A DNA stretch of 32,000 nt from Geotalea uraniireducens Rf4 (GCF_000016745.1 NC_009483.1:4680001-4712000); one strand, 5' to 3'. Counted from the stretch's first letter, positions 9,369-24,002 are shown. Numbers and translations: made by a program. Notes: a model not told the origin generated them from the letters alone.

Positions 9369-10577
9369 ATGCTGACCTACAATTTAATTCACGAAGCCGC
9401 CGACCGGCTGAAAAAAAGGGTGCGGCGCACCGAGCTCATCCACTCCCACCACTTCAGCGAAAAGCTCGGCATCCCCATCTTTTTCAAATGCGAAAACCTG
9501 CAGCGGACCGGCGCATTCAAAATTCGCGGCGCCCTCAACTTCATGACCGCCCAGCCGCGGGAAAACCTCAGGAACGGTGTGATCACCGCATCAGCAGGGA
9601 ACCATGCCCAGGGGGTCGCCTTTTCCGCCGATCTGCTGGGGGTGAAGTCGATGGTGTTCATGCCGGAAAGCACCCCGCCCCAGAAGGTCTTTGCCACCAG
9701 GGATTACGGCGCGGAAGTGGTATTGACGGGAAAGAACTTCGACGAAGCCTACGCAGCGGCACTTAAGGCTCAGAAAGAAACCGGCGCCCTTTTTGTCCAT
9801 CCTTTTGACGATCCGCTGGTAATGGCGGGTCAAGGGACCATCGGCCTGGAGATACTCGACGAGCTGCCGGACCTGGCCAACATCCTTGTCCCCATCGGCG
9901 GTGGCGGGCTTATCGCCGGCATTGCCACTGCCATCAAGCAGACCCGTCCCCGGGTGAGGATCATCGGCGTCGAATCGGCCGCTGCCCCGTCCATGCACTT
10001 TTCCCTGGAAAAGGGTAAAATCACCGAAACACCCCTCTCCGTCACCCTGGCCGACGGCATTGCCGTAAAACGGGTGGGAAAGAACACCTTCCCCATTGTC
10101 CGTGAACTGGTTGATGAAGTGGTGCTGGTAGAGGAAGAGGAGATCGCCCAGGCGATCGTCGCCCTTCTGGAGCGGAGCAAACTCCTCGTCGAAGGCGCCG
10201 GGGCGGTCACCCTGGCGGCACTGATGAACGGCAAGGTTGAGCATGTGACAGGCAAGACCGTCTGCCTTTTGTCGGGCGGCAACATCGACGTAAAGACCAT
10301 CGCTATCGTGGTGGAAAGGGGGCTCCTGGCAGCGGGACGCTACCTGAAGCTGAAGGTGGAGTTGGATGATGTGCCGGGATCGCTGGCGAAACTCTCGACT
10401 GATATCGCGGCAACCAACGCCAACATCTCGCTGATCACCCACGACCGGCGCTCCAAAGCGCTCCCCATCGGCCGGGCCGAGGTGCTGCTGGAGCTGGAGA
10501 CGCGGGGGTTTGACCATATTCGGGAGGTGGTGGGTTACCTGGGCGAGCGGGGGTATGAGGTGGAGGTGCTGAAGTAA
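9369..10577 (+). CDS. ilvA: Threonine ammonia-lyase (threonine dehydratase), short form with one C-terminal ACT-like domain
   Basis: 402 aa. It has the PLP-lysine region FKCENLQRTGAFKIRGA, ASAGNHAQGVA and the glycine loop PIGGGGLIAG. Confidence 0.9.
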   Translation: MLTYNLIHEAADRLKKRVRRTELIHSHHFSEKLGIPIFFKCENLQRTGAFKIRGALNFMTAQPRENLRNGVITASAGNHAQGVAFSADLLGVKSMVFMPESTPPQKVFATRDYGAEVVLTGKNFDEAYAAALKAQKETGALFVHPFDDPLVMAGQGTIGLEILDELPDLANILVPIGGGGLIAGIATAIKQTRPRVRIIGVESAAAPSMHFSLEKGKITETPLSVTLADGIAVKRVGKNTFPIVRELVDEVVLVEEEEIAQAIVALLERSKLLVEGAGAVTLAALMNGKVEHVTGKTVCLLSGGNIDVKTIAIVVERGLLAAGRYLKLKVELDDVPGSLAKLSTDIAATNANISLITHDRRSKALPIGRAEVLLELETRGFDHIREVVGYLGERGYEVEVLK

Positions 10578-11016: not shown

Positions 11017-11721
11017 TCAAACATCCAACCCCGCCCCATGCTTCCTCAGCCACTCCTTCCGTTCGCGGTATGCAGGAATGACCTTGTCCACCTCGTTCCA
11101 AAAGGCATCGGTGTGGTCCAGGTAATGGAAGTGGCAGAGTTCGTGGACCACGATGTAGTCTATGATCGTCTGCGGGGCCATCATGCACTTCCAGTGGAAG
11201 GCAAGGTTGACGCTGGGTGAGCATGAGGCCCAGCGATTGCCCAGTTCTCGGACATCTATGTCACGAGGGGTGACCCCAACCTTGGGCGCGTAGTAGTTCA
11301 CGCGTTGGGTTATCCTTTCTGCTCCACGGGCAATGTAGTAGTTACGAAAGGCTGCTTTTGCAGCCGCTATCGCCCCTGTATCCACCAGGTCACGCCGCAG
11401 GCAGAAACGTCCGTTCTTCAGCAGCAACGGTTCCGTCTGATCCGCCACGAGCAGCAGCCGGTAGGAGCGCCCCAAGTAGAGAAACCCCTCGCCGTTCTTA
11501 TATTCCCGCAGCACGCGGGTGGCGTTGAGATCGCGCCACTCGGCGAGGTTCTTGTAAATCCAGTAGCGCTTGGCCTCGACCATGTACTCTATCCGCTCAT
11601 CGGGGATCGACTCGGGCGCCCGGACCAGTACACGACCATCGCGTTCAATGACGATGTCCGCCGTGGCGCGGTTGCTACGCACAATTTCGTATGAGATGTC
11701 CTTGGCCCAGGTCGCCTTCAT
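11017..11721 (-). CDS. DUF45/YgjP-like (M48/SprT-type) zinc metallopeptidase
   Basis: 234 aa with an HELCH (HExxH) motif near the C-terminus (VVHELCHFHYLDHTDAFW). Its ATG overlaps the hsdR stop in an ATGA at 11718-11721. Confidence 0.85.
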   Translation of the reverse strand: MKATWAKDISYEIVRSNRATADIVIERDGRVLVRAPESIPDERIEYMVEAKRYWIYKNLAEWRDLNATRVLREYKNGEGFLYLGRSYRLLLVADQTEPLLLKNGRFCLRRDLVDTGAIAAAKAAFRNYYIARGAERITQRVNYYAPKVGVTPRDIDVRELGNRWASCSPSVNLAFHWKCMMAPQTIIDYIVVHELCHFHYLDHTDAFWNEVDKVIPAYRERKEWLRKHGAGLDV

Positions 11722-14700
11722 CGTGTCAGCTCCTGGTGGCGTTTTTCGGCGAGCTTCACAATCTCCACCGCGATCCGTTCGTGTTTGTCGATGAGTTGCG
11801 GGATCTCGGTCAGCAGGATCTCGGTGTCGATGTTCCCCCGAAGTTTCTTTACCTCGATTGGCTTCTTCCAGAAGTCGATGATGCCGATAGTACCTTGCAA
11901 CATCTCCACGATGCCAGCCATCAGCCTCTTCAACTGATGCCGATGATTCCCGGGCACTTCGCCATTCTCGAAAGCGAGCTGCACCACGTAGTCGTAGAAG
12001 GTGGTAGCCTCCCTGGTCAAGCCTTCCTCAGCATCCGTCCGGCCCGCCAGGGCTTCGCTTCTGAGTTGTTCATACCCCTCGGCCAGCACCTCCCATTGGT
12101 TCTTGTGCTCCTGGATCAGCTTTTCCAGCTTCTCGCTCAGCCGCTTGTAGAAGGCCGGGTCTTCGTCGAAGTGGATTGTGCAGTGTTTGCGGATGGCATG
12201 CTCCATCTCACTCGCCTTCGCCTCCGGGTTTCCCTGGGAATGCTTCTGCACATTGGAGATGAAGTCGTCCGACAGAAGCTCTATGGGGGGGATCTTGGGA
12301 TTTATCCCCAGGTCGATAAGGTGCTCGTTGATCAGCGCTTTCACCTTCTCACCGGCGTCGGAGATGTCGAGGGAGTCGTCCTTGTAGCGCTCCTTGACCA
12401 TGCGGAGGAGATAGCCGAAACGCCTTGCCGGGCCGCGGTAGGGATGCCCCGACGCGTGGGGGAGGATCAGGTTCAGGCTTTGGAGATACTTCTTCAGGTA
12501 GACCTCGAAGTCCGCCCGGCGCTTGATGTCCTGCATCGCTCCCACAGCCGCATGCACCACGGCCACGTCAGACTCTGGTGTTGCCAGTTCACCCTTTACG
12601 AAGGCTTCGATCTCCCCTACCCCGGCTGCGCGGAAATGCTGCAGGAGACGCTGATAGCGTTCTTCCAGAATCGGCAGTTCGGTGAGCCGGTTTTTCAGCC
12701 CTTGCTGGATGTCTTCTGCATCCTCATCGGAATAGATGCTGAGCGCCTCCATCAGGTGGTTGGCCAGGCCGATGTAATCGACGATGAACCCCCGGTGCTT
12801 GTTCTTCGTCACCCGGTTCACCCGGGCAATGGCCTGTAGCAGGTTGTGCTCGCGCAAACGCTTGTCGATATACATCACCTGCTCAACCGGGGCGTCGAAG
12901 CCGGTCAGCAGCATGTCACAGACGATCAGGAAGGCGATTCCAGTCAGATCCTTGTCCGGGTCGTCCAGATCAAAAGGTTTGCAGAAGTTCTCCACCGCGT
13001 TCCAGCGTTTCGCCTCCTTGCGCGCCTCGGTGATGGCGGCCAGTTCGTTGGTGGCGTCAGCGGAAACCACTACCACGGCCTTCAGGAAGGCGATGCGGCG
13101 AATCAGTTCGGTGTCGGGCTTCTGTTTGAGCTTCTCCACGTCAAGGCGCTCGGCCAGGGCTTCACGGATCGATTTCTGATAGCGGATCGCCGCCAGCTTG
13201 GAGTGGCAGACAACCTGCGCCTTGAAACCGTCGGGGAGGATGTTGTCGACGTAGTGCGTCACCAAGTCGCGGGCAATGGCCGCAATGCGCTGCTCGGCTT
13301 CCAGGATGTCGCCGCTGGCGCCATATTTCTTCTTGATGACGAGGAGTTCTTCTTCGCTCCGGTTCTTGAAGAGGTCTTCGAACTTGGTGTCGAAGCCGTG
13401 CTTGTCCTTCAACGCCGTGTCCGCCGTGCGTCCTTCGTAGAGAATCTGCAGCGTCGCGCCGTCATGCACCGCGTCCATCAGCTTGTAGGTGTCGATGTAT
13501 TCGCCGAAACGCTTCACCGTGCGCTTGCTGCCGTGTTGCTCGGAGATAAGCGGGGTGCCGGTGAAGGCGATGCGGGTAGCGTTGGGGAATGCCTCGAAAA
13601 TGTTTTCACCCAGGTCGGAGCCTTGCGTCCTGTGCGCCTCGTCAATCATCAGCAGGATGCGTTCGGACGGATTGACCACGCCAAAAGTTGCTCCGGACGG
13701 CGGCGGGCGGTAGGCTGCAAGCGCCTCGGCAACCATGGTCGGCAGCGCTTCGGCACGTTCCATGAACTTGTGTACCATCACCATGTTAATGTCGGAGGTA
13801 TCGGTACTCAGGTGCTCGCGCAACGCTGCCGTACTCTCAATCACATTAACCTTGCCGCCGATCAGCTTGGCAGTGGCTGCAAGTTGATCCTCCAGATCGA
13901 CGCGGTCGTTGACCAGCAGGATCTTGAAGTCGGCCAGGTCTTGTGATGCCCGCAGCATGCGGGCCACGAAAACCATAGTCAGTGACTTGCCCGAGCCCTG
14001 GGTGTGCCAGACGACGCCAGAGCGCTCCTCTGATGTCTTGCCGGTGCGCAGGCGCTCAACGATCCGGTGGGCAGCGCGGTACTGTTGGTAACGGCAGACC
14101 ACCTTCACCCGCTTGCCGGAGTCGGTATCCATGAAGACCGTGCAGGTGCGCAGCACATCCAGGAGCGTCGTTGGGGCGAGCAGCCCCTGGATCAGCCGCT
14201 CCTGTTCGCGCTCGATCCCCAGCGGCGGCGTGTAATTGCGGTTCTCCTCCGGCCAAATGTCCTTCCAGGCGTAGAAGTGCTCGTGGCCCGAGGTGATGCT
14301 GCCAAACTCCGCTTTCTCGCCACAGGTGCGTATCAGCAGCAAATTCGTGTGGAACAGGCGCGGCTCTCCTTCGCGCAGGCCGGCAGCAGCCGTTTCCGGG
14401 CGGCCGTTGCGGTAGCGAAGCAGTTGCTCGAAGGCGGCGTGCATCGGGTTGGCCGTGGTGGCGTCGCCGATCTTGGCCTCGATCACCACCAGCGGGATGC
14501 CGTTCACAAAGAGTACGATATCCGGGATGATGCATTTCTTCACGTAGCCGGGCGTGTCGATGCGGAACTGGTTGATGGCGTGGAACTGATTGCGCTCGGG
14601 GTGGGAGAAGTCAATGAGCTGGACCACAGGATCTGGCTCGCCGCTGATCTCATTGCGATCCACTTGTGCCTTGAGGAAGAGCGCCTGTACCGCCTCGTTG

Positions 14701-14972
14701 GCTTCAAGCAGGGTACGGTTTGGCTGGCGCAGGATTTGTGACCGGAGGTCATCGAGTTGGCGATCGGTCAGCCAGGGGGTACCGTCGGCGGTGCGGTTGA
14801 TGGCGCGCACGGCATTGTGGAAGACATCAGGGAGCAGCCATTCGCGGAAGGTGTCGCGCAGGCTGGCCGTAGGATCGGAGGGGATAAACCCCTGACCTTG
14901 GTCGATTACCGTCCAGCCCAGTGCGGCGAGCTGGTCAAGGAATGGTTTTTCTACGTGGAGATATTCAGACAT
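11718..14972 (-). CDS. hsdR: Type I restriction endonuclease subunit R
   Basis: The preferred start is the ATG at 14972 (MSEYLHVEKPFLDQLAALGW). The N-terminal nuclease motif is DIVLFVNGIPLVVIEAK. Helicase motif I is HTQGSGKSLT and the DEAH box is LLMIDEAHRTQ. The long C-terminal domain is typical of HsdR. The 69 codons upstream (to 15179) overlap the PIN-like gene and look non-coding. Confidence 0.95.
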   Translation of the reverse strand: MSEYLHVEKPFLDQLAALGWTVIDQGQGFIPSDPTASLRDTFREWLLPDVFHNAVRAINRTADGTPWLTDRQLDDLRSQILRQPNRTLLEANEAVQALFLKAQVDRNEISGEPDPVVQLIDFSHPERNQFHAINQFRIDTPGYVKKCIIPDIVLFVNGIPLVVIEAKIGDATTANPMHAAFEQLLRYRNGRPETAAAGLREGEPRLFHTNLLLIRTCGEKAEFGSITSGHEHFYAWKDIWPEENRNYTPPLGIEREQERLIQGLLAPTTLLDVLRTCTVFMDTDSGKRVKVVCRYQQYRAAHRIVERLRTGKTSEERSGVVWHTQGSGKSLTMVFVARMLRASQDLADFKILLVNDRVDLEDQLAATAKLIGGKVNVIESTAALREHLSTDTSDINMVMVHKFMERAEALPTMVAEALAAYRPPPSGATFGVVNPSERILLMIDEAHRTQGSDLGENIFEAFPNATRIAFTGTPLISEQHGSKRTVKRFGEYIDTYKLMDAVHDGATLQILYEGRTADTALKDKHGFDTKFEDLFKNRSEEELLVIKKKYGASGDILEAEQRIAAIARDLVTHYVDNILPDGFKAQVVCHSKLAAIRYQKSIREALAERLDVEKLKQKPDTELIRRIAFLKAVVVVSADATNELAAITEARKEAKRWNAVENFCKPFDLDDPDKDLTGIAFLIVCDMLLTGFDAPVEQVMYIDKRLREHNLLQAIARVNRVTKNKHRGFIVDYIGLANHLMEALSIYSDEDAEDIQQGLKNRLTELPILEERYQRLLQHFRAAGVGEIEAFVKGELATPESDVAVVHAAVGAMQDIKRRADFEVYLKKYLQSLNLILPHASGHPYRGPARRFGYLLRMVKERYKDDSLDISDAGEKVKALINEHLIDLGINPKIPPIELLSDDFISNVQKHSQGNPEAKASEMEHAIRKHCTIHFDEDPAFYKRLSEKLEKLIQEHKNQWEVLAEGYEQLRSEALAGRTDAEEGLTREATTFYDYVVQLAFENGEVPGNHRHQLKRLMAGIVEMLQGTIGIIDFWKKPIEVKKLRGNIDTEILLTEIPQLIDKHERIAVEIVKLAEKRHQELTR

Positions 14973-15000
14973 GATTTTCCAATCAAAAAAACGACCCAAG

Positions 15001-15507
15001 TTACCTGCGCCACTTTTTGATCCTAAGTTCACATTCGTGCAGAGGGAGGCGACTGGTCCCTCTCTCAATAAGCTTTTCCAGGCGATCGGCCGCCACGCCG
15101 GGGAGCAGCGCACCACGGGCGAGAAGTATATCAAAAACCCACAGCAGCCCATGTGTTTCGATACCGCGTTCCTCGGCATGCTGCCTCAACCTCTTGTCAC
15201 CGGTCAGCAGGATGCTTTCCAGCTTGCCGGCAAAATACAGGGCCGAGACATCTTCGATTGTTACCCGCGACGAGAGAAGCGCCTGAAGTTGCACGATCTC
15301 GGTAAGAGCCTGCGCCCCCACCGCTTCGATCCCGAACCGGCCCTCATCCACAAATCGCTTCAGTTTGATCTTCTGGTTCTTGCGGTTGACCTCACGCCAG
15401 ACGAGCGTGGTCGTGCGCAGATCAAATCCCAGCCCGAACCAGGCGTCCAGCAGGTCACAGTCAGCCATGTCAATGAGGACCGATGCATCCTGGATGATGA
15501 CTTTCAC
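15001..15507 (-). CDS. PIN-like domain nuclease (DUF3368/DUF4411-like), candidate toxin/effector
   Basis: The GTG start at 15507 overlaps the upstream stop in a GTGA. The N-terminus VKVIIQDASVLIDM, later REV, EDVSAL and LLTGDKRL give the four spaced acidic positions typical of PIN folds. About 168 aa. Confidence 0.65.
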   Translation of the reverse strand: MKVIIQDASVLIDMADCDLLDAWFGLGFDLRTTTLVWREVNRKNQKIKLKRFVDEGRFGIEAVGAQALTEIVQLQALLSSRVTIEDVSALYFAGKLESILLTGDKRLRQHAEERGIETHGLLWVFDILLARGALLPGVAADRLEKLIERGTSRLPLHECELRIKKWRR

Positions 15508-16586
15508 AGAAACTCGCTCAACGTCTGTTGGAACTCCACCAACGACACGTTGAGCAGGGCAGCGCCCTTGTCGAAGCTGATCTGTTCTTCCGCCGTAGCC
15601 CGCAGGACCAGCTGTTCGAAGCGGCTGGATTGCTCGGTGCCGATGTATTTCCCCGGCTCGTCGCGATGCCACCCCTTTTTCTTGCGGATGATGCTGAACT
15701 GGCGGTACGTGGAATCGTCGATCAGCTTCAGGTCGTGGGCTCGGTGCATGATAGCCGCGATCGACATGCCATAACGCCGCTTCAGGTCAATCAGTTCCTC
15801 CAGGCTGATCCGGTGCCGGAAGCCGCCCCAATCCGACGTAAAGACCTCCTTGGGGATCAGCATGGCTCCTGCGAAGCGGTTGCAGAACGCTTCGAGTTCC
15901 TTGCCGCTCAGGTCGGTGTGCGGGGCCACCAACAGATGCGCCGCCTCGTGCAGAGTTGTGAAGCGCTTGCGGGGCATGTCCTTATTCAGCCAGGTTGCCA
16001 GCACGATCACTGGGTGGCCGTCGGCCCACCCCGAGAAGCCGTCGAAGCTCTCCGGCGCCTCAACCTCGAAGATCTTGAAGCCGTTGGTCTCCAGGGTTTC
16101 GATGACATTCGGCAGCGGGTCCTCTCCCAGCTTCCAGTGTAAGCGGACCTTGACAGCTGCCTCCTCCGCCTCTTCGGGTCGGGTGTACCTGACATGCCCC
16201 AAGGGATCGCGGAAGCGGGAGGGGAGCCCCAGAATCTGTTCGATCTCGCAGTACCGCTCGAAAAAGTCGGTGGCCAGCTCCTTGACCGCATCCTCGGACT
16301 TGGCCCCCAGGCCGGTGGTCTTGCGGAAGCGCAGCTCCCGCAGTTCCACCGTGAAGGGGCGGAAGAAGAAGTCCAGCGGCTTGTCCAGCACATCCGCCAC
16401 CGGAATCAGGACATCGTCGCTCGGCATCATCTCCCCGCACTCGTAACGGTGCAGGGCGTTGTAGGAGACCTTACCTCCGATGGCCTCGGCCACGGCCCGC
16501 AGTGACATGCCGCGCATGCGTCGCGCCTGCGAAAGCCGCCGGCCGAAAATCTCTTTCGGGTCCTGTTGTTTCATGGTCGTCTCCAT
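15504..16586 (-). CDS. XRE-family HTH domain fused to an ImmA/IrrE (COG2856) zinc metallopeptidase domain
   Basis: 360 aa. The N-terminal HTH is FGRRLSQARRMRGMSLRAVAEAIG..SYNALHRYECG. The HEAAH (HExxH) motif is at residues 213-217, in the LHEAAHLLV context typical of ImmA/IrrE. Confidence 0.85.
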   Translation of the reverse strand: METTMKQQDPKEIFGRRLSQARRMRGMSLRAVAEAIGGKVSYNALHRYECGEMMPSDDVLIPVADVLDKPLDFFFRPFTVELRELRFRKTTGLGAKSEDAVKELATDFFERYCEIEQILGLPSRFRDPLGHVRYTRPEEAEEAAVKVRLHWKLGEDPLPNVIETLETNGFKIFEVEAPESFDGFSGWADGHPVIVLATWLNKDMPRKRFTTLHEAAHLLVAPHTDLSGKELEAFCNRFAGAMLIPKEVFTSDWGGFRHRISLEELIDLKRRYGMSIAAIMHRAHDLKLIDDSTYRQFSIIRKKKGWHRDEPGKYIGTEQSSRFEQLVLRATAEEQISFDKGAALLNVSLVEFQQTLSEFL

Positions 16587-16626
16587 TTTCTGTTCCCGCC
16601 TCGGTGTACAGAAAACATTTCATTGC

Positions 16627-16666
16627 ATGTTGACAAATTTATCATTATTTTATATTTTGTCAACAT
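16627..16666. promoter_or_regulatory. Symmetric divergent promoter/operator
   Basis: Perfect 11-bp inverted repeat: ATGTTGACAAA (16627-16637) and TTTGTCAACAT (16656-16666), with an 18-nt AT-rich spacer. Each arm contains a consensus TTGACA -35 box facing outward. The -10-like TATATT/TATTTT (+) and TAAATT/ATAAAT (-) lie in the spacer. Confidence 0.5.
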
Positions 16667-16693
16667 AACCATTTCACATTAGGGAGAATGATC

Positions 16694-16909
16694 ATGGCCA
16701 AAGATGCACCCGGAATGCGCGGCATTCGCAGCAGGAACGAGGATGAACAGCTTCGCCAGAAGCGGGGCGATACCCACGTCGGAACTATTGAGAAGATGTA
16801 CGGTCTGGACTTTGATGCCCGCAGTGATATGCACCTTCATACCTTGCTCCAGCGTGAGGGGGTTCAGTCGCTGCATGAGTTGATTGAGAGTGGCAGCGAC
16901 CGCAATTAA
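16694..16909 (+). CDS. Small hypothetical protein (71 aa), divergent from the XRE-ImmA gene
   Basis: A GGGAG RBS at 16682-16686 sits 7 nt before the ATG at 16694 (MAKDAPGMRG...). I recognise no family. The stop is 14 nt from the pAgo stop (convergent). Confidence 0.45.
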   Translation: MAKDAPGMRGIRSRNEDEQLRQKRGDTHVGTIEKMYGLDFDARSDMHLHTLLQREGVQSLHELIESGSDRN

Positions 16910-16923
16910 TCACTTCGAATAGG

Positions 16924-18345
16924 TTACATGAAAAACCGGAATTGATAGGGCGCACTCCCCAATCCACTCATGCGTTTAACAACCCGTGCAAGCACCTTTG
17001 AGTACCCGATGGTTACGGGTAGTGGGTCATACAAGGCGTCGTTATTCCAGTTCATCTTAGTAAGCGCAAGAATAGCGAGTGCAGCCTCATCCCAAGACCC
17101 ATGGCCAGCGTGTCGCACCAAGCGCAACGGCCGAGGAGTGCTTCGAGCCCCTTGAAAATATGCCCCCCGATCACTGATTCCGCGGACATCACCATGCGTC
17201 CACAATAATGCTTCACGCGATCCCAAGCCAATGAGGGTGCCCCGTGAGACAGGGAAAGAAGCAGGTTTGCCTTTTTTAGTCTCTTTATCGAGGTCGATCC
17301 GGATGCCACGCCATCCAACGTCTTCGACGATTTGCACCAAGTCAACCGCCTCGCACAGGTGAAGGGCCTCCATACAACCGTCAATCTCGTCTTGTTTGAA
17401 TTCGGTGGTCTTGTGGACCATCACACGTCGGGGGGAGCGGCCCGCATGCCGACGGCGGTATAGATCAACGGAGCGAGTCATAACTCTGAACATCTCAGTA
17501 CGCGAGAGGAATGGATTTTCGCGCTGAACTTCAACCTCATGGGCATCGTAAGCGACGAACTCCAGGCCAGAGCCCTCAGCATCGAAGACCTGACTACAAC
17601 AAGTAACAAAGCGCGAACGGCCCGAGTCTGGCGGGCGAACTGCGTAAGATATGCCTATATAGGCCGTCTCAGCATCGGTCTCTGCCAGCTTCCAAGGTAC
17701 TCCACCAGCTTTTGCGTAGAGCGCCAGCCCAATACGCCACATTACGCTGGCGCGGTGCGGGTAGGCTAGAGCTTTGTCCTCGCGCACAAACTGAACGGGG
17801 AGTCGACGTGCAGCTGTGGCGGCCTTCAGATGGTCGTGCAGATCAAAATCCTCGCCATGACTTCCTGTGTAGCCGGGGGTCCAGCGCTGGGGAATATAGA
17901 TAAACAGCACATCAAATTTGTCACGGTGTGCTTCGAGTGCCTGGATCTTACGGATTAAGCGGTCAGCTAGTACAATGTGCGGCGTTGAGGAAGCATGAAA
18001 CTCGGCCTCAAATTCTGTGTCGAGTTCTATGTGACAGCCCGCACCAGCCCCTCGCATATGGAGGCCGAAGACGCTATGAAAACCCGGCCACTCTGGAAGA
18101 TATTCGGCACGTTCGGTCGCCTTGACTACAGAGTTGAGTTCTTTCATAAAACCGTAAAGGTGGCGACTCTCGCCGGCTGGGGCTATGGTGGCAACCCGGA
18201 TTGGGTCAGGCACCAGACCACTTGAATGTGGTCCGAATCTCAGCAGTCCGCGTAAAGGATGAATATCTTGATCTGATTGACGATCCGGATGAAAAGCCAG
18301 TTTAGGTTCTGGTAGCCAAATGTGAGTGGAAATTTCGCTACTCAT
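16924..18345 (-). CDS. Short prokaryotic Argonaute (MID + PIWI only), predicted catalytically inactive
   Basis: At 473 aa it is too short for N/PAZ domains. The MID-like 5'-end pocket segment is DLHDHLKAATAARRLPVQFVREDK (H/K/Q/K pattern). PIWI landmarks are AKAGGVPWKL and YIGISY. By eye, the positions of the DEDX catalytic residues read S233 (IGIS instead of IGID), T313 (HKTT instead of HRDG) and K450 (YSKVLA instead of YA[D/H]LLA). The ATG overlaps the SIR2-APAZ stop (ATGA at 18342-18345). Confidence 0.9.
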   Translation of the reverse strand: MSSEISTHIWLPEPKLAFHPDRQSDQDIHPLRGLLRFGPHSSGLVPDPIRVATIAPAGESRHLYGFMKELNSVVKATERAEYLPEWPGFHSVFGLHMRGAGAGCHIELDTEFEAEFHASSTPHIVLADRLIRKIQALEAHRDKFDVLFIYIPQRWTPGYTGSHGEDFDLHDHLKAATAARRLPVQFVREDKALAYPHRASVMWRIGLALYAKAGGVPWKLAETDAETAYIGISYAVRPPDSGRSRFVTCCSQVFDAEGSGLEFVAYDAHEVEVQRENPFLSRTEMFRVMTRSVDLYRRRHAGRSPRRVMVHKTTEFKQDEIDGCMEALHLCEAVDLVQIVEDVGWRGIRIDLDKETKKGKPASFPVSRGTLIGLGSREALLWTHGDVRGISDRGAYFQGARSTPRPLRLVRHAGHGSWDEAALAILALTKMNWNNDALYDPLPVTIGYSKVLARVVKRMSGLGSAPYQFRFFM

Positions 18346-20081
18346 ACCCCAGCCCTCCTTGAAAAACCTGTAATATTGGAAAGGCTAAAGACGGCATCGA
18401 CCCCACCTCCGATATCTAACGCACGCAGGTCTCCTCCGCCGGAGAGCAGATCAGCCCAAAATACGATTAGATCGTTGAGTTGCTTATTATAACGCTTGAC
18501 AGTTCGCTCACGGGCGAAATCGGCGGCAGCCGCCTTGTTCTCGTCGTTAATGCCGTCGAAGACCGTGCGGGGTTCTATCAGAAGCCACAAGCGTTCATCA
18601 GCCCAGTCAAGCCGAGTACCGATTCCTTCGCGCCAATGCAAACCGGGGAAACCGCTGACCGTACCGTTAAGTGATCCTACAAGCTGCTTTAGAGGTGCCC
18701 AGACACTCTCTCTTGGGTCCGATGGTGCTAACAAATCAGCACTTCTCCGACGAGTTGCGTCCAATCGATGATGGCGTTCTAAAGCACGGGTAAGTGCACT
18801 GCGTAACAGGCCACGCTCGCCGGAATCGTAGCGCAGTCGCTTGTTGTCGATGGTATGTAGGTCAAAATCAGTAATGTTGTAACCACCAAAAGCTGCACGC
18901 ACGTCGCCATCGGCTCCAAAGGCCAACACGCCAGCCCGAGTGCGAGCAACGAGGACGTCAACGCCAGCCTGCTTGACAGCTTCCCGTGCTTCTGCGTGGC
19001 CGCCGATCTCACAGACAACGCGTCGACATACTGTTGGAATTTGTACGACAGGTATTGCATTGAGGCGCACCACCGGCCAGCCTCGTTTTCCTCCTGGCGG
19101 CGGGGCGCTACTCCAGCGGCGGCGCTCGGCTGCGAAGGTGTCGAGTATCGTGGTGTCGATGCTTTTTACCATTCGCACCAAGTCTCGCATTGCCTCATCG
19201 AAGTTTTGAACCCTTATCAGTGCTGACTCCACTCCAGCCTGTTTCGCTCGCGCCAGCAATTGTTCAACTCGGGCGAGCGGTGGATCTTCCCCGCGATGCA
19301 GCCAGAACAATCCGGAAGGGTAAGCGCCATTTTGTTCCAGCACCTCCTCCAGTGCATCCATAATGGAATCGTCACGGCCACTGTACCCGACTACAACAAG
19401 TCCAAAGCGTTTGCAGGAATCTACTAGAAGTTGCCTTAAACGTTGATCTTGGTAACGCAATTCATCACCAGTGTTTTTGAGTCGCCGAGATCTGAAGTCT
19501 CCATGCAACTTTACCTCGATTGGCCATCTTCCTCCTCCTATGCACTGAGCAGCTAAATCAGGCGCTTCGAGAGCAACAGTCGTGAGTGGTCCTGTTCCGT
19601 CATATACCTTCGCACAAGCATCCGCCACGAGTGGATCGAAGTTGGTTGTCCACACCAAACGCGTAAGTTGTGCATGCATCAGAGAAGCGAGGGCCAAGTG
19701 TCCATAGGACAACTTTGCTCCACCCATTTTGGCATCCAAATAGGCGCGACGATCCGACTCTGCAGGATAAACTGCTTCAAAAAGTGCTGCGTACTCGTCC
19801 GGGGAGCCGGGAGAAGGCAAACTCCCTGAGGAATCAACGTAGGCCTGTAACTGAGCACGAATTGTGGGATTCGACAGATCGGCCATAGACTGGTGCGAAA
19901 CTCGTCGTTGGCTGATGAATAGTTGCTGCTTAAACTCCCAGACCATATCTCCGGCAGTGGGTATCCCAGCTGAGGCCGATGCACCGGCACCGAGTAGCCA
20001 CATCAGGTTCCCAGCCCGTAAAGAAAAACGTCGAGCAAAATCATCCGCTTCTATCGTAGGCACATTGTTCCCTTTACCCAT
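18342..20081 (-). CDS. SIR2-APAZ fusion protein (SIR2_2-type NADase domain + APAZ domain), partner of the short pAgo
   Basis: 579 aa. SIR2_2 landmarks are the glycine-rich LLGAGASASAGIP (31-35), TTNFD (145-149), KLHGD with His193, and VGYSGRDD (231-238). The C-terminal ~280 aa has no recognisable enzymatic motifs, consistent with APAZ. It lies 23 nt downstream of hsdS. Confidence 0.9.
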   Translation of the reverse strand: MGKGNNVPTIEADDFARRFSLRAGNLMWLLGAGASASAGIPTAGDMVWEFKQQLFISQRRVSHQSMADLSNPTIRAQLQAYVDSSGSLPSPGSPDEYAALFEAVYPAESDRRAYLDAKMGGAKLSYGHLALASLMHAQLTRLVWTTNFDPLVADACAKVYDGTGPLTTVALEAPDLAAQCIGGGRWPIEVKLHGDFRSRRLKNTGDELRYQDQRLRQLLVDSCKRFGLVVVGYSGRDDSIMDALEEVLEQNGAYPSGLFWLHRGEDPPLARVEQLLARAKQAGVESALIRVQNFDEAMRDLVRMVKSIDTTILDTFAAERRRWSSAPPPGGKRGWPVVRLNAIPVVQIPTVCRRVVCEIGGHAEAREAVKQAGVDVLVARTRAGVLAFGADGDVRAAFGGYNITDFDLHTIDNKRLRYDSGERGLLRSALTRALERHHRLDATRRRSADLLAPSDPRESVWAPLKQLVGSLNGTVSGFPGLHWREGIGTRLDWADERLWLLIEPRTVFDGINDENKAAAADFARERTVKRYNKQLNDLIVFWADLLSGGGDLRALDIGGGVDAVFSLSNITGFSRRAGV

Positions 20082-20104
20082 AGCAATTCATCCTTGCTGG
20101 AAGG

Positions 20105-21391
20105 TTAAATTTCGGTACGTTCAAACACTTGCACGTTACCTGTCATGAGGTCGTGCATGAGGCCGCGTTTGATTAGTCGATTCACGGACTGACTTTCATT
20201 AAGAGCACAAATATTCATTTCCATCCATTCCAGCCGCTCAACAATTCGCACCTGTTCATCTAAATCACAAAAAGGAAAAAACAACCCTTCCATAACCGAG
20301 TTGTTTAAACTCGGCATTGTGGTTCCAACGGCTCTGCCTACGATCTGCCGCTGCACAAAATCTTGTCGGTAAACTTGAGCTGCAAAGTCTGCCGTCAAGG
20401 CGCTCTGTCCTAAGCGTAGTAAGAAGCACCCTGTCCCACAAACCCAACCCTGCTCTGACTCTCTGATTGCTGCTGCACGTGAAAGATCGCCTCGTCTGGC
20501 AATTACCATGTCACCAAGACTCATTCGATGCCGCGCTAAATCATTGGCACGTGCCTCGTGAATTCGGGCGATATTCTCTGTGCCAATCAATCCATTGTTG
20601 ATGTCTTGGGGCATCACGACTGGAACACCTTCGGCCTGATATTCATGAGCATGGAGCTGACTGCCAAAAGGCCCAGTCTGAAGGTATCCACCGCATTTAC
20701 GTAAGATGTTTCCCAGTCTTTCGACCTCCCACTCCTTCGGAATCCACCCAAGCGGAGATTCTTTGTAGAGGCCGGGCGCATGTTCGCGTGTGGGACGAAG
20801 GTGGCCGTCGGGGGTGACGCCACGGGTGAACAGGTCGTGCATCAGCCCAGCCTTGACCTGCTGCATCTTCGCAATCAGCACCTCGGTCTGCTCAATTGTT
20901 TCGTCCAGTGTTGAGAGGATTTCAGCGATGCGGCGCTGCTGAGGAAGTGCTGGCAACTCCACCAAGTAAGCAACGAGGTCGGAGCGGATTATCCCATTAA
21001 TGCTCGTTCCTTGGTTCAGTTTTTTGAGGTCTTCCACTCCCTGACGCATTCGATGAAAAAGGAACGATGTAGCAACCTGATTATCATCGACGTAAACTCC
21101 AGTGATGTCTTGGCTGATGGCGATGTCACATGGGGCAATGGCAATTTTTCCGACTCCTGTGCGGGTGACCAATAACAATTGACCTTGTTGAATCACATTT
21201 GTAGCCGACTGCCTGACAGCCTCCTCCGAGACGAAGCGCCTGAATTCCCCGATGCCAGATGGCGTGAAGTCGGCTCCAGTTATCCAAGGTATGTTTCCAT
21301 TCCAGTAACGGTCTATATCAGTCGACGGGGTTCCACCGTTTACAATCTTTTTGGCAATTTGACCAAACGGAACAGTAGACCACTCACTCAT
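20105..21391 (-). CDS. hsdS: Type I restriction-modification specificity subunit S
   Basis: 428 aa with two target-recognition halves. Each half is followed by the conserved helical spacer ([25 protein letters not shown]...[11 protein letters not shown] and [14 protein letters not shown]...[11 protein letters not shown]). The start overlaps the hsdM end by 8 nt. Confidence 0.9.
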
Positions 21392-23858
21392 ACCCCAACT
21401 CCACCAAAAACCCCTTCAACTTCTCCGCAGCCAAATCCCGCCTGGCCTCAATGTCCTTGACAGTAACGGCATATTTCCCATGCAGATTCTCCAGCGCAGC
21501 AAGACACGCCCGCTGGTCGGCCTGCAGATACCCTTCATAGGTCTGCACCAGCAGGCGACGCAGCCGGTCGAGGATGACACGACGGGCTGCATCGTGGTCG
21601 ATCTTGTCTCGGGCGGCAGCAACGAGATCCTCCTGTTTCTTCTCCGTGGCACGCAGCTCTGCTTTCAACTGCTTCCCCTCATCCTCCAGCGCTTTGTGCC
21701 GGGCAAGACGTGCCTCCGCGGCTTGGGCGCGGGCTGTGAAAGCCGTGGCGTCCCGGTTTTCCCGTTTCGCCAGCTTGGCCTGGGCATTGGCCTCCTTGAG
21801 TTCGGACTTGAGCGCCTTGACATCCTCGGCGGGGAGGACTCCGGTGTCGTCGCTGTCTTCGTAATCCTCTTCATCGGCGGCGGCAAAGAGAGCCGAGAGT
21901 TCGGCTAACCGCAGGCGCTTCTGTTCCATGTCGGCCAGGAGTTCCGGGAACTGGCTCTCCAGGATGTCGGCGTCGGGAATCAGTTCCGGCCCCCAGCCGC
22001 TGGCGGCGATGGATTTGAGATCTGCCTTCAGGTCATCCATATACCGGGCAAAGGCACCACGAATCTGGTGTTCGGTCAACAGGCCCTGCCCAGAAAAGGT
22101 CAAGGCGATGGTGGCAAGAAGCCCACGGCGCAGTTCATAGACATTCCCCTTCTGGCCGTTCCTGGGGGCGAGATCTTCAATCAGCGGCAGGTTCTCCACC
22201 CACCACGTTTCCAGTGTCTGCAAAAAGCGGCTCTGCGCCACCACCACGCCAGGGTCGGTTTTGACCAGTTCGGCCAAAGTTCGTCGATCGGTGACGGCAG
22301 GGGTGAAATCGGCATAGAGGGAATCGCCCGGACGCGGTACAAAACAGCGCTCTCGCAGACCAGGATAGTTGGTCCAGTAACGGGCCATGGCCTCAATCTC
22401 AACGGTCGGAACCCCGCCGTGCAGGTGGGCACGCACGTCGTGGGGCTCGGGCGGCGGGGCGTTGTCCACATAGCGGCGGATATTGCAGTTGTAATCCTCG
22501 ACTTTGATCTCGCTCACCGGCACCCGGCGAGCGTAGCCGGGCACGTCCGCCATGGTACGGTAGGCGTGGACGATCTTGGAAATATCCTCTGGACGCAGGA
22601 AATTCTGCGCCTTCCCTTCACGATATTCCCGGTCGGCATTGATGAAGAAGACGTGGTCGCGCACGTTATCACCCGAACCGGCGTCCTTTTTGTTCATCAC
22701 CAACACGCAGGCAGGGATGCCTGTGCCGTAAAAGAGCCCTGCGGGTAGACCGATTACCGCCTCCAGCCAGCCGTGCTCTATGAAGTGCCTGCGCGCCGCC
22801 TTTTCCTCGCCTCCCCGGAAGAGCACGCCGTGGGGCATGACGGTGGCCATCTTGCCGTCGGCCTTGAGCACGGCCAGCATGTGCTGGACAAACATCAGGT
22901 CGGCCTTTTTTCCCTTTTCCGGAAGCCAGACGGCGAAACGGCCGGGATAGTCGATGTCTTTTTTTATGTAGTTCTGACTGAAGGGGGGATTGGCAAGGAC
23001 GCGGTCGTGTCGTTGCAGTTCATTGTTCTCTGCCTTGTGTTGCGGGTGACGCAGGGTGTCCTCCTGGCGGATGTCGGCGTGCTCGATGCCGTGGAGGAGC
23101 ATGTTCATCTTGCAGATGGACCAGGTGGTGCCGATGCTTTCCTGCCCGGCAAGGGCGAGGTCGCGAGGATCACCGCCACATTCGCGGACATAGTCGCGGG
23201 TCTGGATGAGCATGCCACCCGAGCCGCAGGTGGGGTCGTACACACTCATGCCAGGCTGGGGATCAACGATCTCGACCAGGGTGCGCACCACATCGGCCGG
23301 AGAGTAGAACTCTCCCGCCTTCTTGCCGGCGGAATCAGCGAAATATTTGATCAGGTATTCGTAAGCCGCCCCGAGCAGGTCAGGGAACTCAAAGTTTTCG
23401 TCGCGAAGCGGGATCTTCTCGAAGTTCTGGATGAAGTTGGCAAGTGTATCGTCGTCAAGGGAACGCTGGCCGATCTTCTTGTTGAAGTTGATCCCCTTGA
23501 GCACGTCCTGCAGAGCATCAACGTTTGCGTCCTCCAGCGCTTCCAGCGCCTTGTTGAGATTAGTGCCGACATTGGTCTTGAGGTGGCGGATATTAGACCA
23601 GTGAGCCTCTTCCGGCACGAAAAAAGTGTATTTATCCGGGTTGTTAAGCTGGCCAGCGATGACCGCCTCGGCCATCCCCTTTTCTTTTAAATCTTTGGCG
23701 AGCTGTTCCCGCTCCTGGTCGAAGAGGTCGGAGAGGCGTTTCAGGAATAGCATTCCGAAGATATATTCTTTATATTCAGAGGCGTCCATGTTGCCGCGCA
23801 GGTCGTCGCAGGCGCGGAAGAGAAGGCTGGAAAGTTGGCTGAGGGTGAGTTTGGACAT
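21384..23858 (-). CDS. hsdM: Type I restriction-modification N6-adenine DNA methyltransferase subunit M, with a ~355-aa C-terminal extension
   Basis: The HsdM_N-like N-terminus is [32 protein letters not shown]. The AdoMet motif is [12 protein letters not shown] (206-217) and the catalytic NPPF is at 290-293. The canonical end NIRRYVDN is at about residue 466. An extra region through residue 824 follows and is rich in charged heptad-like sequence. Confidence 0.95.
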
Positions 23859-24002
23859 CAGGTAATTACTCCGGAGTTATTGGCAGGGGTGTTATACTGG
23901 GTGCAAATGTAGCGCTCGGAGAGGGATTTTTCATGGATAGGCACAATTAACAAAATAATGTCAAAATTACAAGAAGATAACCTACTGTCAGCACCACCGG
24001 CT

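Follow-up and report, generated by a model that had tools for sequence, protein, structure and literature searches.

Two overlapping genes on the minus strand of the Geotalea uraniireducens Rf4 genome, encoding proteins of 579 and 473 residues, raise the question of whether this bacterium carries a short Argonaute defence system of the SPARSA type and, if so, how closely that system follows the one known from Geobacter sulfurreducens. SPARSA kills infected cells through NAD+ destruction. We analysed the pair within a 32,000-nucleotide stretch of the genome (NC_009483.1:4680001–4712000; hereafter the window), whose features are collected in Table 1. An initial annotation had read the locus as a SIR2-APAZ protein paired with a catalytically dead MID-PIWI short Argonaute, and each sequence-level defining feature of that assignment that we tested was found. 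Both open reading frames are intact and full length and share the ATGA ascribed to them, a Shine-Dalgarno sequence for ago (AAGGAGG) lies at 18354–18360, and the motifs picked out in the two proteins all sit where they had been placed (GAGAS 31–35, TTNFD 145–149, KLHGD 191–195 with H193, and GYSGRD 232–237 in the first; DLHDHLK 168–174 and PVQFVREDK 183–191 in the second). We put at roughly 0.88 the probability that the Rf4 genes form an intact abortive-infection system of the SPARSA type, in which a SIR2-APAZ protein partners a short prokaryotic Argonaute.

Table 1. Features of the sir2-ago locus and its surroundings, in window coordinates
Feature	Position	Strand	Details
hsdM, methyltransferase	21384..23858	-	824 aa; Pfam N6_Mtase E 4e-96, HsdM_N E 5e-32; 8-bp overlap with hsdS
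hsdS, specificity subunit	20105..21391	-	Pfam Methylase_S, two stretches, E 6e-28; upstream of sir2, co-oriented
hsdS-sir2 junction	20082..20104	-	23 bp; AAGGA 9 nt ahead of ATG
SIR2-APAZ effector gene	18342..20081	-	579 aa; ABQ28185/WP_011940822, NCBI name 'SIR2 family protein'; exact sequence present in NCBI
Sir2 NADase domain	19134..20081	-	~aa 1–316; GAGAS 31–35, N147, D149, H193-G-D195, D237; boundary transferred from GsSir2 residue 309
APAZ region	18345..19070	-	~aa 338–579; aligned to GsSir2 APAZ (Gs 331–587) as part of one HMMER domain; PADLOC match takes it in through PNTD1-PNTD2
ATGA stop/start overlap, sir2-apaz/ago	18342..18345	-	Direct sequence reading
Short pAgo gene	16924..18345	-	473 aa, MID+PIWI only; ABQ28184/WP_011940821, NCBI name 'argonaute/piwi family protein'
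MID 5'-phosphate pocket segment	17710..17838	-	H170, K174, Q185, K212; hhalign to TtAgo
PIWI sensor loop	17503..17547	-	aa 267–281, tip N277 and F279; mapped to GsAgo sensor loop D261–S276
ORF73	16688-16909	+	Part of second embedded module
Divergent promoter-like pair	16630-16663	.	Promoter scan
RmrA-like antitoxin, XRE-HTH/M78 peptidase	15504-16586	-	PADLOC RmrA E 4.5e-55; Pfam HTH_3, Peptidase_M78
Putative toxin	15001-15507	-	168 aa; overlaps RmrA-like gene, downstream
hsdR	11718-14972	-	1084 aa; Pfam HSDR_N, SWI2_SNF2, T1R_D3-like; TIGR00348 E 5e-128
YgjP-like metallopeptidase gene	11017-11721	-	Pfam YgjP-like; translationally coupled to hsdR; closes the type I R-M operon

The assignment draws on matches that run the length of both proteins. 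Pfam SIR2_2, one of the profiles by which the initial annotation had proposed to judge the pair, matches the 579-aa protein significantly (E 4.3e-13; 50 bits against a cut-off of 24.5); its companion, Pfam Piwi, scores the Argonaute at 18.7 bits, below the curated cut-off of 28.9, and taken alone would look negative. PADLOC models match both proteins at full length, pAgo_I over Argonaute residues 2–473 (E 4.8e-199) and Aga_SIR2-PNTD1-PNTD2 over residues 19–577 of the Sir2-APAZ protein (E 5.4e-199). Homology to the characterised G. sulfurreducens pair is likewise end to end: Argonaute residues 3–473 align to 6–473 of the 473-aa GsAgo chain 8in8_C (E 1e-111), and Sir2-APAZ residues 13–550 to 7–552 of GsSir2-APAZ chain 8in8_B (E 5.8e-72). 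Being collinear with GsAgo over its whole length, the Rf4 Argonaute consists of MID and PIWI only, with neither N nor PAZ domain, and the co-oriented gene that adjoins it upstream encodes SIR2 fused to APAZ, as the SIR2_2, GsSir2-APAZ and full-length PADLOC matches indicate. It is this end-to-end homology, together with the PADLOC matches, the conserved residues and the loss of the DEDX tetrad, that supports the SPARSA reading. The further suggestion that the locus may be the G. sulfurreducens system itself or a close orthologue is ruled out by BLASTP, which found homology at 41% identity for the Argonaute and 29% for Sir2-APAZ, and by the host, which is G. uraniireducens Rf4. G. sulfurreducens supplied the sole solved or characterised relative found in this analysis.

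Aligning the family profile to TtAgo with hhalign (probability 94.9%) places D478, D546 and D660 on S233, T313 and K450, upholding all three losses previously called by eye; three positions of the DEDX tetrad of four are thus lost, which leaves PIWI unable to cut. Across the family alignment of 76 homologues S233 is invariant, position 313 is T, S or N, and position 450 is mainly K, Q or H; positions 233 and 313 are never acidic, and E occurs at 450 in 1 of 77 sequences. The glutamate-finger position, TtAgo E512, aligns to E272, which varies in the family and lies within the present sensor loop, a remnant of the loop that carries the glutamate finger in slicing Argonautes. The GsAgo sensor loop spans D261–S276, with N272 and Y274 at its tip (PMC11452484, PMC10474274); in the Rf4 family N277 at the tip never varies, and F stands at position 279 in 72 of the 76 homologues, Y in the other 4.

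The 5'-phosphate pocket is retained. H170, K174, Q185 and K212 pair with TtAgo R418, K422, Q433 and K457, so that three of the four pocket residues originally proposed stand (H170, K174 and Q185, counterparts of GsAgo H166, K170 and Q181; PMC10781750), and the fourth, the pocket lysine, is K212 rather than K191. None of the four varies across the 76 homologues, nor does the C-terminal M473; N434, kept as N in 75 of them, makes up the metal site with the C-terminal carboxylate. Conservation of the effector is equally strict at its active site: all 60 homologues keep N147, D149, H193-G-D195 and D237, and of these N147, H193 and D237 correspond to GsSir2 N142, H186 and D230, residues whose mutation abolishes NADase activity or defence (PMC10781750; bioRxiv 10.1101/2021.12.14.472599). 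The GsSir2 boundary used to delimit this domain is a published one (PMC10781750). The APAZ region beyond it is the counterpart of the N/L1/L2 segment in long Argonautes.

The Rf4 pair belongs to a separate clade that has spread by horizontal transfer. Argonaute identity within the clade is 63–87% across more than a dozen phyla, the closest relatives, from many phyla, lying at 63–99%, and the APAZ region has a median family identity of 60% against 25% to G. sulfurreducens. The order of the two genes is maintained: of 80 related loci, 78 have sir2-apaz immediately upstream of ago, and the remaining two are cut by contig ends. Low dN/dS values (ago 0.07 and sir2 0.13 against the related locus L004; 0.06–0.08 against L005) point to purifying selection, and a GC3 of 0.49–0.52 in sir2, ago and hsdS, compared with 0.66–0.83 in neighbouring genes, marks these three as foreign DNA. 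The tenfold lower dS of the cassette (0.1, against ~1.1 for hsdM/hsdR) shows that it was exchanged recently and independently of hsdM and hsdR. Our literature search found no publication or experimental study of the Rf4 sir2-ago locus or of its clade.

The pair lies in an island of the order hsdM-hsdS-[sir2-ago]-[RosmerTA-like pair]-hsdR-ygjP, which Pfam and TIGRFAM matches for HsdM, HsdS and HsdR identify as a type I restriction-modification (R-M) operon, its hsd genes flanking the embedded cargo in one orientation. A promoter scan of the minus strand of the hsdS-sir2 junction gave no promoter-like site; because of this and the 23-bp spacing, sir2-ago probably makes up the downstream half of an hsdM-hsdS-sir2-ago unit within the R-M operon, and probably not the free-standing two-gene operon first described. 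The junction is equally tight elsewhere (23 bp in L004, 18 bp in L005). A second defence module is embedded between hsdS and hsdR, at 15001–16909. RosmerTA systems comprise an antitoxin, RmrA, with an HTH and an M78/ImmA-type peptidase, followed by a variable toxin. The 168-aa putative toxin has no significant family match in Pfam, PHROGs or PDB; DUF3368 was listed for it only among precomputed Pfam hits, and hmmscan did not reproduce that match.

How far might the Rf4 pair depart from the rules of GsSPARSA? The Sir2-Sir2 tetramer-interface residues H158, Y168 and N244 are needed for GsSPARSA activity; none of these, nor Gs D153 or Q297, is conserved in the Rf4 family; of the tetramer-interface residues, those that are conserved are the pAgo-pAgo contact H105 (Gs H104) and Sir2 R303 (Gs R296). 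The two structural papers on the Gs complex disagree as to whether it oligomerises at all (PMC10474274 versus PMC11452484). On the guide side, GsAgo contacts 2'-OH groups through Y240, H310 and K396 and reads U2 through R190 (PMC11452484), positions occupied here by F246, E315, Q398 and Y195, with S200 in place of N195, all near-invariant among the 76 homologues. Of the GsAgo determinants of an RNA guide and a 5'-AU end (Y240, H310, K396, D164 and R190), only the A1-reading aspartate is retained (D168, equal to Gs D164), which leaves family membership unaffected. The description of the system as RNA-guided is carried over by homology only; with the GsAgo 2'-OH contacts and U2 reader replaced throughout the clade, a preference for RNA guides and for a 5'-AU end need not hold here. 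These replacements and the unconserved Sir2 interface residues, together with the distance to G. sulfurreducens (41%/30%) relative to the Argonaute identity inside the clade, would fit a SPARSA variant of the same architecture that uses other guides (a different 5' dinucleotide, or DNA for RNA), another Sir2 oligomeric interface, or both. We consider such a variant unlikely, if far from negligible: the 5'-phosphate pocket, D168, the sensor-loop tip, H105 and R303 are all conserved, and neighbouring residues may compensate for some swaps (Y to F or K to Q, for example).

The setting of the genes invites another explanation, that sir2-ago is functionally integrated with type I R-M, taking restriction products or HsdR-stalled DNA as targets or guides, or forming with it a co-regulated layered system. 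Besides the close, co-oriented junction with hsdS, in which no promoter-like site was found, the recurrence of the arrangement speaks for it: hsdM-hsdS-[sir2-ago]-...-hsdR is found also in L004, L005 and L011, and embedding with an unrelated type I R-M family (22–25% identity) in L049 and L050. Enrichment of HsdS near pAgos was noted earlier as a statistical association (PMC6299218), the one such link that we found in the literature on pAgos and embedded cassettes, where SPARSA as an embedded cassette was not found described. Yet in about 65 of the 80 related loci tblastn detected no type I R-M gene within 10 kb, exchange of the cassette has been independent of hsdM and hsdR, and GsSPARSA functions alone in E. 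coli (bioRxiv 10.1101/2021.12.14.472599). Cargo differs on the same scaffold among L004, L005, L011 and L049, and the presence of unrelated defence genes inside type I R-M operons is a general phenomenon (bioRxiv 10.1101/2024.01.29.577857; PMC11411939). Functional integration is very improbable. The foreign-looking GC3 and the failure of the promoter scan to find a promoter of the pair's own could also be expected of a decaying or silent relic with no present defence role; intact full-length frames, retention of every catalytic and pocket residue, dN/dS of 0.06–0.13 and the tight translational coupling that has been kept make this highly improbable.

Under the preferred reading, an intact SPARSA-type system, the coupled genes would yield a heterodimer in which, by homology with the G. 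sulfurreducens complex, APAZ replaces the missing N/L1/L2 lobe. The MID pocket (H170, K174, Q185, K212, N434 and the M473 carboxylate with a divalent ion) would hold the 5'-phosphate of a short guide, most probably RNA from invader transcripts, and pairing of that guide with complementary invader single-stranded DNA would displace the PIWI sensor loop. The ensuing rearrangement, probably with oligomerisation, may then open or align the Sir2 pocket (N147, H193, D237), whose hydrolysis of NAD+ would stop the infected or plasmid-bearing cell, with no cutting by PIWI. The pairing of the Rf4 proteins as a heterodimer, their type of guide, the triggering of NADase activity by a target and their oligomerisation are all attributed by homology only.

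What the locus adds conceptually is little: SPARSA is characterised and its structures solved, RefSeq already names both proteins, and PADLOC recognises both. Its interest lies in standing for a large clade that shares just 41%/30% identity with the one SPARSA whose structure has been studied, and, since its guide-contact residues differ systematically, the clade is a sensible second model for learning which SPARSA rules are general. A more ambitious proposal, which we hold very tentatively and think quite unlikely, is that this strongly conserved cross-phylum clade chooses its guides and is switched on in ways that differ from GsSPARSA, and that it moves inside type I R-M operons as a recombining cassette, co-transcribed with hsdMS to give a second immune layer. 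On that proposal, with Y195, S200, F246, E315 and Q398 and a different Sir2 interface, its members could load DNA guides or guides with other 5' ends and fire through another assembly. The locus is also a clean example of defence-cassette exchange in a type I R-M scaffold, in which the cargo of the neighbouring slot varies between genomes, and it shows that a host from the Geobacter family need not carry the G. sulfurreducens system, as had been assumed.

Among known systems, the nearest is GsSir2/Ago (PDB 8IN8, 8JKZ, 8JL0, 8Y7Z, 8Y80, 8Y82), which has the same overlapping two-gene sir2-apaz/ago layout, an Argonaute of equal length (473 aa) and a collinear Sir2-linker-APAZ protein, and which shares the Asn/His/Asp Sir2 residues, the HK-type MID pocket, the C-terminal RFFM, the Asn-tipped sensor loop and the dead PIWI. 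Identity to it is 41% for the Argonaute and 29–30% for Sir2-APAZ (34% in the Sir2 domain, 25% in APAZ), and the gene overlap is 4 bp in Rf4 compared with 11 bp in G. sulfurreducens; the Rf4 pair departs from it in the replaced guide 2'-OH contacts and U2 reader, in largely different Sir2 tetramer-interface residues, in its Geotalea host and in being embedded in a type I R-M operon. SPARTA, a short pAgo with TIR-APAZ (for example PDB 8FEX, 8IFK), has in common an inactive MID-PIWI Argonaute, an APAZ-fused NADase and the same logic of guide/target sensing through the PIWI sensor loop, with Argonaute homology at E ~1e-20; the effector here is SIR2_2 rather than TIR, and the Argonaute similarity is far weaker than that to GsAgo. 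Long active pAgos such as TtAgo have a homologous MID-PIWI lobe with equivalent 5'-phosphate pocket positions, whereas the Rf4 protein lacks N and PAZ as well as the DEDX aspartates, and its output would come from the associated NADase in place of slicing. As for genomic setting, PrrC, TgvAB and HEC/PDC are likewise defence genes embedded in type I R-M operons, unrelated cassettes of variable cargo between hsdS and hsdR; the cargo here is instead a SPARSA pair and a RosmerTA-like pair.

A mechanical list of open reading frames (ORFs) places the two genes of the pair, sir2-apaz and ago, on the minus strand exactly where the initial annotation had drawn them, and direct reading of the sequence bears out the proposed ATGA overlap: the reverse-strand junction reads ...AAGGAGGGCTGGGGTATGAGT..., so that the ago ATG (18345-18343) and the sir2-apaz TGA (18344-18342) share four bases. 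A strong Shine-Dalgarno sequence lies 8 nt 5' of the ago ATG, and all the protein motifs that had been picked out by eye fall at the residues assigned to them. The Pfam SIR2_2 match expected of the 579-aa protein is significant (E 4.3e-13, residues 142-271); the Piwi match expected of the 473-aa protein is sub-threshold (18.7 bits, where the gathering score is 28.9), making that model unusable as sole evidence for ago, and no NCBIfam model matches either protein. Both are assigned unambiguously by the defence-specific PADLOC models Aga_SIR2-PNTD1-PNTD2 (579-aa protein, E 5.4e-199, residues 19-577) and pAgo_I (473-aa protein, E 4.8e-199, residues 2-473). The NCBI entries with exactly these sequences are named 'argonaute/piwi family protein' (ABQ28184/WP_011940821) and 'SIR2 family protein' (ABQ28185/WP_011940822); our literature search found no paper naming G. 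uraniireducens with Argonaute, nor the accessions of the pair.

Searching all PDB sequences, we found that the best matches of the two proteins are two chains of one complex, with Ago 3-473 aligning to 8in8_C 6-473 (E 1e-111) and Sir2-APAZ 13-550 to 8in8_B 7-552 (E 6e-72). According to the depositing papers, 8IN8, 8JKZ/8JL0 and 8Y7Z/8Y80/8Y82 are the SIR2-APAZ/Ago (SPARSA) complex of Geobacter sulfurreducens (Gs). Because the Sir2-APAZ match is a single collinear domain running through the APAZ region of GsSir2 (331-587; PMC10781750), the C-terminal ~240 aa, formerly called only APAZ-like, are APAZ by homology and more than a motif-free stretch. Similarly, the Ago equals GsAgo in length and aligns with it end to end, and thus lacks N and PAZ domains, in keeping with its description as MID and PIWI only.

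We then placed the functional residues using HMMER alignments together with homologues drawn from related loci (76 Ago and 60 Sir2-APAZ sequences) and aligned by MAFFT. By both methods, N142, H186 and D230 of GsSir2, mutation of which abolishes NADase activity or defence (PMC10781750; bioRxiv 10.1101/2021.12.14.472599), correspond to N147, H193 and D237 here; all 60 of the 60 homologues keep these three residues, D149 and the H-G-D loop unchanged. In the MID pocket, GsAgo H166, K170 and Q181 correspond to H170, K174 and Q185. An asparagine and a C-terminal residue equivalent to N434 and M473 hold the divalent ion on the guide 5'-phosphate (PMC11452484). Both are kept in the window's Ago, M473 being invariant and position 434 an asparagine in 75 of the 76 homologues.

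For the slicer site, our reference was TtAgo taken from pTT27 (L084:22997-25054), whose catalytic residues we take to be D478, E512, D546 and D660 and whose pocket residues we take to be R418, K422, Q433 and K457. Profile alignment of the Ago family to TtAgo by hhalign (probability 94.9%, E 4e-8) pairs D478, D546 and D660 with S233, T313 and K450, the very replacements of the DEDX tetrad proposed by eye, and E512 with E272. Family-wide, the serine at 233 never varies, T, S or N occupies position 313, and position 450 is mainly K, Q or H. The four TtAgo pocket residues pair with H170, K174, Q185 and K212; the H/K/Q/K pocket of the initial annotation therefore stands in its first three members, and K191 as the fourth is ruled out in favour of K212, within YAKAGG, which pairs with K457. 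E272 falls inside the sensor loop, identified in both Gs structural papers with the former catalytic loop (PMC10474274; PMC11452484); at the tip of this loop N277 (Gs N272) never varies, and F or Y stands at position 279 (Gs Y274).

The pair had been described as a two-gene operon, but it is not isolated: it sits in an hsdM-hsdS-sir2-ago ... hsdR-ygjP array entirely on the minus strand (see table). We found no promoter or terminator belonging to sir2-ago itself and no sigma-70-like promoter 5' of sir2, and for want of such a promoter the simplest reading makes SPARSA the distal half of a transcript running hsdM-hsdS-sir2-ago. Promoter-like sites occur only at 16630-16663, where a divergent pair serves the RmrA-like gene and a convergent ORF of 73 codons (ORF73). 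Housekeeping genes flank the island, with DUF2064/folE2/queC/rpoD/dnaG to one side and a PALP threonine-dehydratase-like gene to the other; the window contains no tRNA gene, the flanks show no convincing direct repeats beyond short families at chance level, and the intergenic ends have no att sites recognisable on reading. HsdM is unusually long (824 aa), with Pfam domains stopping near residue 466 and a charged, coiled-coil-like C-terminal stretch of ~350 aa that matches no family. As listed mechanically, the hsdR ORF (1153 aa) starts at 15179 and runs into the upstream 168-aa gene; the true hsdR start is likely the ATG at 14972 (MSEYLHVEKPF..., 1084 aa), matching Logan gene calls and the related loci L004 and L005.

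Features of the island in the window, and cargo of the ago-hsdR slot in related loci
Feature	Coordinates	Strand	Remarks
hsdM	21384-23858	-	
hsdS	20105-21391	-	overlaps hsdM by 8 bp
hsdS-sir2 junction	20082-20104	-	23-bp gap, AAGGA ribosome-binding site
sir2-apaz	18342-20081	-	579 aa
ago	16924-18345	-	473 aa
spacer	16587-16923		337 bp
ORF73	16688-16909	+	putative, 73 codons, divergently promoted
XRE-HTH/M78 peptidase gene	15504-16586	-	PADLOC RmrA, E 4.5e-55
168-aa gene	15001-15507	-	overlaps RmrA-like gene
hsdR	11718-14972	-	
ygjP-like metallopeptidase gene	11017-11721	-	PF01863; overlaps hsdR stop codon by 4 bp
slot cargo, window			ORF73 and RosmerTA-like pair
slot cargo, L004	L004:11458-12513		351-aa TIR-domain protein
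slot cargo, L005 / L011	L005:5792-7351; L011:2884-4467		AlbA_2/HATPase_c_4/Fic-C proteins
slot cargo, L049	L049:11499-14466		IS fragment, DUF1828 protein, DarT and macrodomain (DarG-like) protein

The same hsdM-hsdS-[sir2-ago]-...-hsdR-ygjP arrangement occurs in three metagenome-assembled genomes (MAGs), from Deltaproteobacteria (L004), Betaproteobacteria (L005) and Gammaproteobacteria (L011), and the same embedding is found in L049 and L050 with type I restriction-modification (R-M) systems only 22-25% identical. Among 80 loci searched by tblastn, about six more carry a complete R-M system just 5' of the pair, and ~65 of the 80 showed none with the window's proteins as queries. That type I R-M operons carry embedded defence genes is well established (bioRxiv 10.1101/2024.01.29.577857; PMC11411939), and HsdS and AlbA_2 proteins were earlier listed as enriched near pAgos (PMC6299218). 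The YgjP-like gene is kept 3' of hsdR in L004, L005 and L011 (61-85% identity), and thus travels with this R-M family.

Comparison with L004, otherwise the closest island, reveals that the cassette and its scaffold have different histories. Positions 16924-20165, comprising ago and sir2 with the terminal 60 bp of hsdS, are 96.5% identical in DNA to L004:8181-11422, whereas hsdM and hsdR/ygjP are only ~81% identical, and no similarity extends beyond 11017-23879; one breakpoint coincides with the stop codon of ago, and the other lies 60 bp into the 3' end of hsdS. Synonymous divergence (Nei-Gojobori dS) follows the same division, with ago and sir2 at 0.09-0.10 and hsdM, hsdR and ygjP at 1.0-1.3, while against L005 it is 1.1-1.8 for all genes; GC3 is lower in sir2, ago and hsdS (0.49-0.52) than in hsdM and hsdR (0.73-0.78) or host genes (0.66-0.76). 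Taken together, these contrasts show that the SPARSA cassette was recently exchanged between two anciently diverged copies of one R-M scaffold. With dN/dS of 0.06-0.13, sir2 and ago are under purifying selection, which shows that they are functional. HsdS itself is only 31% identical to its L004 counterpart (L004:6997-8241), against 88-90% for HsdM and HsdR, with similarity confined to the middle of the gene (20724-20929) and its conserved 3' region; this is typical target-recognition domain swapping, and implies that the two R-M specificities differ.

Between ago and hsdR lies a second defence-like module (15001-16909), consisting of the XRE-HTH/M78 peptidase gene, the overlapping gene for a putative 168-aa toxin and ORF73. 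The gene pair resembles the described RosmerTA system (PMC10440598) and is a second, self-promoted embedded module; L004 lacks the whole of 15001-16909. The 168-aa protein finds only PIN-like proteins in the PDB (E ~0.4) and PADLOC PDC-S70 at E 1e-3; a DUF3368 assignment present in precomputed hits was not reproduced by hmmscan. ORF73 has no homologues in Pfam, PHROGs or the compared loci beyond identical contigs. In a Bacteroidetes MAG (L036:451-1976), an XRE-M78 gene (39% identity) and a homologue of the 168-aa protein (30% identity) stand beside a SPARSA pair, upstream and divergent, a second and differently arranged co-occurrence of both modules.

More widely, sequence comparison places the pair in a large clade distinct from the Gs system, with 2,818 proteins scoring E<=1e-20. 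The best 80 genome loci (Ago identity 63-99%) span Desulfobacterota, Beta-, Gamma- and Alphaproteobacteria, Acidobacteriota, Verrucomicrobiota, Planctomycetota, Actinomycetota, Chloroflexota, Nitrospirota, Bacteroidota, Ignavibacteriota, Poribacteria, Patescibacteria and others, a distribution that is the signature of horizontal spread, as previously noted for pAgos (PMC6299218). In 78 of these 80 loci sir2-apaz lies immediately 5' of ago (tblastn with the window's proteins), the other two being truncated at contig ends, and Ago is more conserved than its partner in 58/58 loci (medians 73% and 64%). In a Rhodobacteraceae MAG (L040), sir2-apaz matches at 927-2225 and 9591-10001 lie ~7.4 kb apart, which suggests an insertion disrupting the effector gene.

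Gene structure, homology, residue conservation and tetrad loss, all observed at the locus itself along with purifying selection, support the core of the initial annotation, a translationally coupled SIR2-APAZ and catalytically dead short pAgo of SPARSA type. We consider it very probable (roughly 0.88) that guide-directed recognition of invader DNA would release the Sir2 NADase, leading to abortive-infection-like NAD+ depletion. Heterodimer formation, guide type, trigger and oligomerisation would follow by analogy with the Gs system.

The suggestion that this locus may be, or be closely orthologous to, the G. sulfurreducens system is refuted by the low BLASTP identity (Ago 41%, Sir2-APAZ 29%; within the latter protein, Sir2 domain 34% and APAZ 25%) and by the host, the exact sequence lying in the 5.14-Mb chromosome of Geotalea (formerly Geobacter) uraniireducens Rf4. 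GsAgo Y240, H310 and K396, reported to hydrogen-bond guide 2'-OH groups, are replaced by F246, E315 and Q398, the U2-reading R190 of GsAgo is replaced by Y195 and its N195 by S200, all five replacements being invariant or nearly so across the clade, whereas the A1-reading D164 is retained as D168. Tetramer-dependent activation of GsSPARSA is impaired by interface mutations including H104, R296, H158, Y168, N244, D153 and Q297; of these, H104 and R296 are conserved here (H105 and R303), but Gs H158, Y168, N244, D153 and Q297 are not conserved in the clade, and the Gs structures themselves conflict over oligomerisation (PMC10474274 vs PMC11452484). Since guide-contact and several interface residues differ, 'RNA-guided, 5'-AU, tetramer-activated' is an extrapolation for this clade, beyond what its sequences show. 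The pair is thus an uncharacterised addition to the known SPARSA kind, which standard annotation already recognises, and its value, though modest, lies in guide-contact residues that are replaced throughout the clade and in the dynamics of a cassette inside a type I R-M operon.
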